From Escherichia coli (GTDB lineage Bacteria; Pseudomonadota; Gammaproteobacteria; Enterobacterales; Enterobacteriaceae): DNA of 64,000 nucleotides. The stretch is from assembly GCF_003991155.1 (NCBI RefSeq), contig NZ_CP031293.1; one strand, written 5' to 3'. Position 1 is the stretch's first letter; every line of letters starts with the position of its first letter. The position numbers and the translations under genes were made by a program. This document shows positions 31,935 to 63,399 of this stretch, in pieces. The notes beneath the pieces were generated by a model. It worked only from the letters and a program-made list of their open reading frames with translations. It searched no databases and was not told the DNA's origin.

Positions 31935-32041
31935 TTAATTAAAGTGGCATCCTCCCGCATCCTCTCTGATAATGACGGGATGCCGGGAGCAATCATGTCT
32001 GCTTCCTGAACTTTCTTCTGACAGATCAATGGATGCCAGTA

Positions 32042-33007
32042 ATGATTAGCGGCGTGTTGTACGCCCTGTTAGCAGGGTTGATGTGGGGGCTTATTTTTGT
32101 CGGGCCGTTGATCGTACCGGAATACCCGGCGATGTTGCAGTCGATGGGGCGTTATCTGGCGTTAGGGTTAATTGCGCTGCCCATTGCCTGGCTGGGACGC
32201 GTGCGTCTGCGTCAGTTGGCGCGTCGCGACTGGCTTACCGCCTTGATGCTCACCATGATGGGCAACCTTATCTATTACTTCTGCCTTGCAAGTGCCATTC
32301 AACGTACTGGCGCGCCTGTTTCCACGATGATTATCGGCACCCTGCCGGTGGTGATTCCCGTTTTTGCCAATCTGCTTTATAGCCAGCGCGACGGCAAACT
32401 CGCATGGGGAAAACTCGCCCCGGCACTGGTTTGTATTGGCATCGGCCTGGCGTGTGTGAATATTGCTGAGTTAAACCACGGACTCCCCGATTTTGACTTG
32501 GCACGTTATACCTCTGGCATCGTGCTGGCGTTAGTTTCCGTGGTCTGCTGGGCATGGTATGCCCTGCGCAACGCCCGCTGGCTGCGGGAAAATCCCGACA
32601 AACATCCGATGATGTGGGCGACGGCGCAGGCGCTGGTCACGCTGCCGGTTTCTCTCATCGGCTATCTCGTCGCCTGTTACTGGCTGAATATGCAAACGCC
32701 GGACTTCTCCTTACCCTTTGGCCCCCGTCCGCTGGTGTTTATTAGTCTGATGGTTGCGATAGCCGTGCTTTGCTCATGGGTTGGCGCACTCTGCTGGAAC
32801 GTCGCCAGCCAGCGATTACCGACAGTGATTCTCGGGCCGCTGATTGTTTTCGAAACGCTGGCAGGTTTGCTGTACACCTTTTTACTCCGCCAGCAAATGC
32901 CGCCGCTAATGACGCTGAGCGGTATCGCGCTGTTAGTGATTGGCGTGGTCATCGCGGTCAGAGCAAAACCAGAAAAACCTTTAACTGAATCTGTCTCAGA
33001 AAGTTGA
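32042..33007 (+). CDS. ytfF: DMT-superfamily inner membrane transporter (about 321 aa; alternative ATG at 32033)
   Basis: Polytopic translation MISGVLYALLAGLMWGLIFVGPLIV... Confidence 0.85.
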   Translation: MISGVLYALLAGLMWGLIFVGPLIVPEYPAMLQSMGRYLALGLIALPIAWLGRVRLRQLARRDWLTALMLTMMGNLIYYFCLASAIQRTGAPVSTMIIGTLPVVIPVFANLLYSQRDGKLAWGKLAPALVCIGIGLACVNIAELNHGLPDFDLARYTSGIVLALVSVVCWAWYALRNARWLRENPDKHPMMWATAQALVTLPVSLIGYLVACYWLNMQTPDFSLPFGPRPLVFISLMVAIAVLCSWVGALCWNVASQRLPTVILGPLIVFETLAGLLYTFLLRQQMPPLMTLSGIALLVIGVVIAVRAKPEKPLTESVSES

Positions 33008-33065
33008 CACGCTGGCAGTGAGTTAAATAAGCCTCTGCTACGTAAGGGTTATAGCTTTTGCCTTA

Positions 33066-33088
33066 AAGATGCATTTAAAATGCATCTT
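33066..33088. promoter_or_regulatory. NsrR operator AAGATGCATTTAAAATGCATCTT upstream of ytfE
   Basis: Near-perfect 23-bp inverted repeat matching the NsrR consensus; ytfE is a classical NsrR target. Confidence 0.8.
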
Positions 33089-33114
33089 ATCTTATTAAGA
33101 ATGAGGTATCAGCT

Positions 33115-33777
33115 ATGGCTTATCGCGACCAACCTTTAGGTGAACTGGCGCTCTCTATTCCTCGCGCTTCGGCTCTGTTTCGTAAATATGATATGGATTA
33201 CTGCTGTGGCGGTAAGCAGACGCTGGCGCGCGCGGCGGCACGTAAAGAACTGGATGTTGAGGTCATTGAAGCCGAACTGGCAAAGCTTGCTGAACAACCG
33301 ATTGAGAAAGACTGGCGTAGCGCCCCGCTGGCGGAAATCATCGACCACATTATTGTGCGCTATCACGATCGCCATCGCGAGCAGCTGCCGGAGCTGATTC
33401 TGCAAGCGACTAAAGTCGAGCGCGTTCACGCCGACAAACCGAGCGTGCCAAAAGGGCTGACAAAATACCTGACTATGCTGCATGAAGAGCTTTCCAGCCA
33501 CATGATGAAAGAAGAGCAGATCCTCTTCCCGATGATCAAACAAGGCATGGGCAGCCAGGCAATGGGGCCAATCAGCGTAATGGAAAGCGAGCACGATGAA
33601 GCGGGTGAACTGCTGGAAGTAATCAAACACACTACCAATAACGTCACACCGCCGCCGGAAGCCTGCACCACCTGGAAAGCGATGTATAACGGCATTAATG
33701 AACTGATTGATGACCTGATGGAGCACATCAGCCTGGAAAATAATGTGCTGTTCCCGCGCGCACTGGCGGGTGAGTGA
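33115..33777 (+). CDS. ytfE: Iron-sulfur cluster repair di-iron protein RIC (220 aa)
   Basis: Translation [37 protein letters not shown]... Confidence 0.95.
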
Positions 33778-35234: not shown

Positions 35235-35542
35235 GTTTTTTTCTTCCTGTACCTGTCTGTGTTGTTCAGGCTCTACGGCCTTTAGTCAGTCTATGATACG
35301 ACGAATCTGTATCGGGACTCATCGATATTAGGTAACAATACGCGGGATGAATACTAAGATTTAGATCTAATGTTAATTTTATGTTTAAAGTAAGTGTCAT
35401 ATCACGGTGATAACGCGAAACAGCTCACAAAAATACACGCTTACAGGGTCTTTGCAACATAAAATAGCGCCGTTTGGCAAACTGAAGGAGTTATTGCTGA
35501 ATGCCTGCTCCCCTCTGGTTCGAAGGGAACAGAATGCGCTGC

Positions 35543-46849: not shown

Positions 46850-46877
46850 AAAACGCCGACCAATGGTCGGCGTTTTT
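46850..46877. terminator. Bidirectional rho-independent terminator (ACGCCGACC-AATG-GTCGGCGT flanked by A-run and T-run) between dctP-like gene and rplI
   Basis: Perfect 9-bp stem with flanking A/T tracts on both sides. Confidence 0.8.
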
Positions 46878-63320: not shown

Positions 63321-63399
63321 ATATTATTCCATATAAATTAAGTTTAAATATTAATAAAATGAATATTTGCAGTACGTAATTATCTTACCAGCTATAGAC

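Follow-up and report, generated by a model that had tools for sequence, protein, structure and literature searches.

A 23-bp perfect inverted repeat upstream of ytfE in Escherichia coli matches the known NsrR operator

We analyzed a window of 64,000 nucleotides from the Escherichia coli contig NZ_CP031293.1 (assembly GCF_003991155.1); unless another locus is named, all positions below are positions in that window. The region considered here is the gap between ytfF and ytfE, which contains a 23-bp palindrome at 33066 to 33088. The upstream gene, ytfF (32033 to 33007, plus strand), is annotated as a DMT transporter, and its stop codon lies 59 nt before the palindrome. The downstream gene, at 33115 to 33777 on the plus strand, encodes the 220-aa di-iron RIC protein YtfE: it scores 417 bits against NCBIfam model NF008221, for which the cut-off is 254, and it is annotated as ytfE in 5,413 E. 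coli genomes. Downstream of ytfE lies cycA, in convergent orientation. A Shine-Dalgarno sequence, GAGG, is present at 33103 to 33106 (plus strand), 8 nt before the ATG of ytfE, and GAGGT is conserved in the stacked alignment. The palindrome is centered at 33077, 38 bp upstream of the ATG; it spans -49 to -27 relative to that codon, and 26 nt separate its end from the ATG. When the 401 bp around the palindrome were used as a query, 5,413 of the 5,426 complete E. coli genomes matched over at least 80% of the query length. One of them, strain 2016C-3878, is 100% identical over the 401 bp and carries the annotations ytfF and ytfE on the two sides of the gap.

A search of the 64-kb window for nsrR did not find the gene. 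In strain 2016C-3878, nsrR is annotated 33.7 kb from the palindrome, at a position approximately 2.7 kb past the end of our window. It falls outside because an additional island of approximately 10 kb, located between ytfB and rplI, shifts the map relative to K-12. Mapped by way of the 2016C-3878 annotation, this island extends from about 37003 to about 46786 and does not belong to the K-12 gene order; it carries genes for a TetR regulator, a 3-ketoacyl-ACP reductase, a sugar-phosphate isomerase, an enoyl-CoA hydratase, a CoA transferase, an FAD oxidoreductase, and a TRAP transporter. Within ytfE itself, the Term-seq table in the supplement to Adams 2021 lists an RNA 3' end antisense to the gene, at K-12 position 4431615 on the plus strand, which corresponds to approximately 33483 on the minus strand of the window. 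This 3' end presumably results from read-through from cycA.

Read directly from the sequence, the 23-mer at 33066 to 33088 is AAGATGCATTTAAAATGCATCTT. It is an inverted repeat of the form 11-1-11, AAGATGCATTT-A-AAATGCATCTT, and as a feature it belongs to neither strand. The left half-site, AAGATGCATTT, occupies 33066 to 33076 on the plus strand; the right half-site, at 33078 to 33088, reads AAGATGCATTT on the minus strand and is 100% complementary to the left arm. A single unpaired A at 33077 separates the two, and it alone accounts for the one mismatch between the 23-mer and its match on the reverse strand. Both half-sites fit the published NsrR half-site consensus AAxATGCATTT, with its 1-bp spacing, at 10 of the 10 specified positions. 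An earlier note on this DNA had called the site a near-perfect 11-1-11 inverted repeat; the 11-1-11 arrangement stands, while "near-perfect" understates the symmetry of this allele and applies instead to the K-12 allele, AAAATACATCTT.

Symmetry of this kind is rarely produced by base composition. Dinucleotide shuffles of the window contained on average 0.175 perfect inverted repeats whose arms were 11 nt or longer and whose spacer was at most 5 nt, as compared to two in the actual window, and no match to the 23-mer with three or fewer mismatches was found in 100 shuffles of the window. The second of the two repeats, and the only other perfect palindrome in the window with arms of at least 11 nt, is AAAACGCCGACCAATGGTCGGCGTTTT at 46850 to 46876. 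It lies in the gap between the TRAP-transporter gene and rplI, is a G+C-rich bidirectional terminator, and has no connection to NsrR.

To measure the match to NsrR, we scored the window with a symmetrized log-odds matrix. The matrix was built from 25 of the 27 NsrR sites of 11-1-11 form reported for E. coli CFT073 (Mehta 2015, PMC5320621); the ytfE site and one duplicate were left out of the training set. The palindrome scored 31.06 bits out of a possible 31.22 bits (99.5% of the maximum), which is higher than the score of every training site, the best of which reached 26.5. In 100 simulated windows the per-window maximum was 14.0 +/- 2.35, with 21.6 as the largest value, and none of the 6.4 million null positions scored at or above the palindrome. 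The runner-up positions in the window were 63345 to 63367 (12.4 bits) and 35356 to 35378 (12.2 bits); we dismissed both as further NsrR sites, as they score below the per-window null maximum. Under the same matrix the K-12 allele scores 30.30 bits, as compared to 31.06 for the allele in the window.

The published record on this site is extensive. An NsrR site upstream of ytfE was predicted by comparative genomics (Rodionov 2005, PMC1274295). In the alignment of six enterobacteria presented there, whose sequences were selected by gene, E. coli, Klebsiella, Salmonella, and two Erwinia carry an intact site, and that of Yersinia is still recognizable. For CFT073, Table 4 of Mehta 2015 opens with the identical 23-mer, which is placed upstream of ytfE and is positive by ChIP-seq. 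Its PatSer ln P of -25.13 is the best of that genome, and the score of the left half-site, 10.92, is the highest of those that Table 2 of the same paper gives for ytfE. Expression of ytfE in CFT073 was induced 69.6-fold under NO-generating conditions. Across reviews and primary papers, ytfE, hmp, and hcp are the three NsrR targets consistently induced by NO, and NsrR occupancy in vivo, together with NsrR-dependent repression of ytfE that NO relieves, has been published for the K-12 allele as well. The site is thus already known: it is the NsrR operator of ytfE, and its location, regulator, and role have been described since 2005-2006.

The earlier note had proposed an NsrR operator upstream of ytfE, had suggested matching it against an NsrR weight matrix, and had linked it to control by nitrosative stress. 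The near-maximal score from a matrix trained without the ytfE site, together with the identical, ChIP-seq-positive 23-mer of CFT073, confirms the operator, and the NsrR peak and approximately 70-fold NO induction at that identical site agree with the proposed control. The note's description of YtfE as an Fe-S repair protein needs more care. It follows standard annotation, but the role of the protein is now debated: Crack 2022 argues that YtfE is a nitrite reductase that generates NO, with feedback on NsrR.

Comparison with characterized NsrR sites shows which properties are shared and which are particular to this one. The CFT073 ytfE site is identical in its 23-mer, its downstream gene ytfE, and its neighbor ytfF, and differs only in the strain. 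In K-12, the site has the same locus and position and is identical at 22 of 23 bases, the exception being operator position 17, which is A in K-12 and G here. The operators of hmp, tehB, and the nsrR-linked globin genes (Rodionov 2005) share the core AGATGyATTTnAAATrCATCT with it. Their distance to the start codon, from a few bp up to a few tens, is less fixed than at ytfE, and their central base varies, whereas it is always A before ytfE. More distant is the operator of hmpA1 in Streptomyces coelicolor, which is also 23 bp long and is likewise bound by one dimer of [4Fe-4S]-NsrR in a cluster-dependent manner (Rohac 2022, PMC9338935). Its sequence differs, however (AACACGAATATCATCTACCAATT), and several of the residues with which S. 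coelicolor NsrR contacts DNA are not conserved in the E. coli protein. According to one article (PMC10783083), no structure of an enterobacterial NsrR-DNA complex is known.

Also reportedly concerned with the K-12 ytfE promoter are the studies of Bodenmiller and Spiro from 2006 and of Partridge and colleagues from 2009, both of which are said to describe its NsrR site.

To examine the operator in other species, we searched GTDB representative genomes, each from a different species, for the 21-nt core AGATGCATTTNAAATRCATCT and obtained at least 120 loci. Neighboring genes were identified by tblastn with YtfE, by clustering of the nearest ORFs, and by NCBIfam. Because the loci were chosen by their core sequence, conservation of the core is true by construction; the independent observations are the spacing, the flanks, and the identity of the downstream gene. 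Among the matches listed, 106 of 120 cores lie directly upstream of known or predicted genes of the NsrR regulon. The largest group comprises 59 of the listed loci, in which the core lies directly upstream of ytfE. At a further 18 of the listed loci the downstream gene is hmp, and at 10 of these glyA is divergent, which is the E. coli arrangement; at 12 (Proteus, Morganella, Photorhabdus) the gene is tehB. At 17 of the listed loci, in Legionella, Methylobacter, and relatives, the core lies between a divergent pair of genes. One member of this pair is a regulator of the Rrf2 family, whose best family match is NsrR at 139.8 bits, under the cut-off of 182; the other is a small protein without an NCBIfam match that we judged by eye to be globin-like.

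The ytfE loci listed come from more than 20 genera, and the YtfE identity among them falls as low as 59%. At the listed loci where the tblastn alignment began at residue 1, the distance from the operator center to the ytfE start codon is 36 to 39 bp (mode 38), with Limnobaculum, at 56 bp, as the sole exception. The flanks, in contrast, have diverged to near-zero information in a profile of 58 regions upstream of ytfE. In other species, the 59 listed ytfE loci divide into 26 with the perfect core and 33 with the A form, a mixture that fits the degenerate consensus ATrCAT. The central base, read on the ytfE sense strand, is A in all 59. Elsewhere it varies: at hmp it is A in 12 cases, T in 4, G in 1, and C in 1; at the globin-like loci it is T in 5, C in 5, A in 4, and G in 3; and it varies at tehB too.

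Some conservation extends past the ends of the 23-mer. Before ytfE, the bordering bases CATCTTATAT (33089 to 33092 in the window) are also conserved, and the palindromes of Legionella, Methylobacter, and Photorhabdus are often longer, reaching TATAAGATG...CATCTTATA (core matches L015, L020, L022, L026, L031). These conserved bases beyond the operator may be contacts for the wings of NsrR, or they may be -10-like TATAAG hexamers at the operator edges. At the tehB loci of Proteus, Morganella, and Photorhabdus, the core lies only 5 to 18 bp before the first candidate start codon (L016, L022, L023, L043, L068, L100, and others); this implies either that the leader is very short or that transcription begins within the operator.

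Within E. coli, the operator exists in two common alleles that differ at 33082 (plus strand), position 17 of the operator. G at this position gives the perfect palindrome, and A is found in K-12 and most E. coli. Using exact matches of 30-mers that span the operator among approximately 5,415 complete E. coli genomes, we found the G allele in 924 genomes (approximately 17%) and the A allele in 4130 (approximately 76%), while approximately 360 genomes matched neither 30-mer. Carriers of G include the strain of the window, CFT073, and AR_0017. K-12 MG1655 has A, which makes its right arm AAATACATCTT, and A is also present in O157:H7, in the sister species E. albertii and E. whittamii, and in the two species representatives labeled as E. 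coli.

Apart from rare alleles, the other differences within the species fall outside the operator. One such rare allele, in strain EC12, carries AAATGTACCTT in place of AAATGCATCTT as its right arm, a difference of two substitutions (L129, 1801 to 1830). Just downstream, the sequence contains a tandem ATCTT-ATCTT at 33084 to 33093, the first copy of which forms the end of the operator. AR_0017 has only one ATCTT copy (L003, 3036 to 3046), so that its operator is intact and the distance from operator to ATG is 5 bp shorter. In strain 09A19CPO004B, an ISEcp1-blaCTX-M-15 unit is inserted at 33095/33096, in the gap between the operator and the ytfE ribosome binding site (L008, 1 to 2520). The native promoter and operator are thereby disconnected from ytfE.

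The placement of the operator bears on how it would act. With the operator at -49 to -27 from the ATG and GAGG at 33103 to 33106, transcription probably starts within or very near the operator. A full-text literature search found no transcription start for ytfE, and the TSS tables of Kim 2012 have no entry for the gene. A scan for consensus promoters called no sigma-70 promoter in the ytfF-ytfE gap; a weak ytfE promoter would fit one that needs an activator. A candidate NarL/NarP site of 7-2-7 form, TGCTACG-TA-AGGGTTA, lies at 33036 to 33051 (plus strand), as predicted in Fig. S2 of Rodionov 2005. Of the sequence 5' of the operator, our profile of 58 regions upstream of ytfE shows conservation only at AAGGGTTATA, 33044 to 33053 (consensus AAAGGGkTATAg), which matches in position the right half of the predicted NarP site.

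Several hexamers could serve as the -10 element, including TATCTT (33088 to 33093), AAAGAT (33065 to 33070), and TATAGC (33050 to 33055), and sequence alone does not discriminate among them. The most likely candidate is TAAAAT at 33076 to 33081 (plus strand), in the operator center, which would put the start near 33088. We favor it because the central A is invariant before ytfE and because the conserved upstream block would then lie at about -44.5. NsrR does not specify this base, and the finding of A there in 59 of 59 ytfE operators of other species hints at a further requirement, for which a -10 hexamer TAAAAT is one candidate. In addition, the abstract of the 2006 study by Bodenmiller and Spiro reportedly states that the inverted repeat of ytfE overlaps the -10 element. 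We infer the exact -10 element and transcription start, and likewise the action of the repressor in the strain of the window. Repression by exclusion of polymerase is nevertheless robust to uncertainty in the start, since a start anywhere from 33062 to 33101 would put the operator within the footprint of RNA polymerase.

Taken with the published biochemistry, these observations make us almost certain that the palindrome is the operator for NsrR control of ytfE, at which a [4Fe-4S]-NsrR dimer on the core promoter would block RNA polymerase until NO relieved the block. NsrR is a homodimer of the Rrf2 family with a [4Fe-4S] cluster, and its holo form binds a 23-bp operator. In the Streptomyces structure, helix 3 and the wing of each subunit lie on one half of the operator, with the wings reaching its ends (Rohac 2022). 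When the cluster is nitrosylated, the protein no longer binds and the genes of the regulon are derepressed. At ytfE, a [4Fe-4S]-NsrR homodimer would accordingly occupy the 23-bp site, each 11-bp half-site receiving one winged-helix domain, and, seated on the core promoter, would keep RNA polymerase away. NO would nitrosylate the cluster, NsrR would lose its hold on the DNA, and ytfE would be derepressed.

A palindrome behind a gene end may also act as RNA, either as a weak intrinsic terminator or attenuator of ytfF read-through or as a stem in the 5' UTR of ytfE. The site lies 59 nt past the ytfF stop codon, with no other terminator in the ytfF-ytfE gap; a consensus scan lists it as terminator-like, with 10 pairs, a loop of 3, and the tail ATCTTATT; and the RNA hairpin folds at -10.7 kcal/mol (z = -3.2). 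The details of the hairpin nonetheless do not resemble a terminator. Only 3 of the 10 pairs in its stem are G-C, and the tail, AUCUUAUUAAGA, has no uninterrupted run of U; the true terminator at 46850 to 46876 is, by contrast, G+C-rich. What is conserved is the exact sequence rather than the pairing, with no compensatory changes, and the one common variant, G/A at 33082, breaks the symmetry. The same sequence stands before hmp, tehB, and nsrR-like genes, often between divergent genes rather than behind a gene end, and if transcription starts near 33088 the palindrome would not be transcribed from the ytfE promoter at all. A role as RNA is for these reasons very unlikely. Chance can be set aside even more firmly. 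Short palindromes are common, and intergenic DNA is rich in A+T, but the shuffles and the null distribution of the matrix described above are far from producing this site, and a functionless repeat would not keep its sequence and its spacing from a start codon across more than 20 genera while its flanks diverged. We consider that reading refuted, with a negligible residual probability.

The remaining question is whether the main binder could be another regulator, such as FNR, Fur, IscR, or a different protein of the Rrf2 family. At hmp, the NsrR site overlaps an FNR site. The operator architecture is common to Rrf2 proteins (Rohac 2022), and a review of RIC proteins reports that ytfE is derepressed in fnr and fur mutants. 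The same review, however, finds no recognizable FNR or Fur sites in the ytfE promoter and describes the fnr and fur effects as thought to be indirect. The best FNR-like reading we could make by eye, TTAAA-ATGC-ATCTT, agrees with the consensus at only 6 of 10 positions. The 23-mer corresponds to the NsrR matrix consensus and to that of none of these other regulators, and the NsrR ChIP-seq peak in CFT073 lies on exactly this sequence. There is, in our judgment, hardly any chance that a regulator other than NsrR is the main binder, and we retain NsrR as the protein that acts here.

The operator of ytfE is a textbook case, to which the allele survey and the spacing across species add minor detail. 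It also serves as a calibration point. The earlier note had offered the site as an internal check on motif reading in the window, and so it proved: a tool-free reading of the raw sequence gave a real operator with the correct coordinates and the correct regulator. With a score near the maximum of the NsrR matrix, the operator is a good positive control for motif scans.

It is a tentative and rather unlikely proposal that the G/A difference at 33082 is a functional cis-regulatory variant that tunes repression between lineages. If it were true, G could tighten repression by NsrR, which would lower basal YtfE and with it the amount of endogenous NO made from nitrite in some lineages, and rare alleles such as that of EC12 or the ISEcp1 insertion would be natural derepressed variants.
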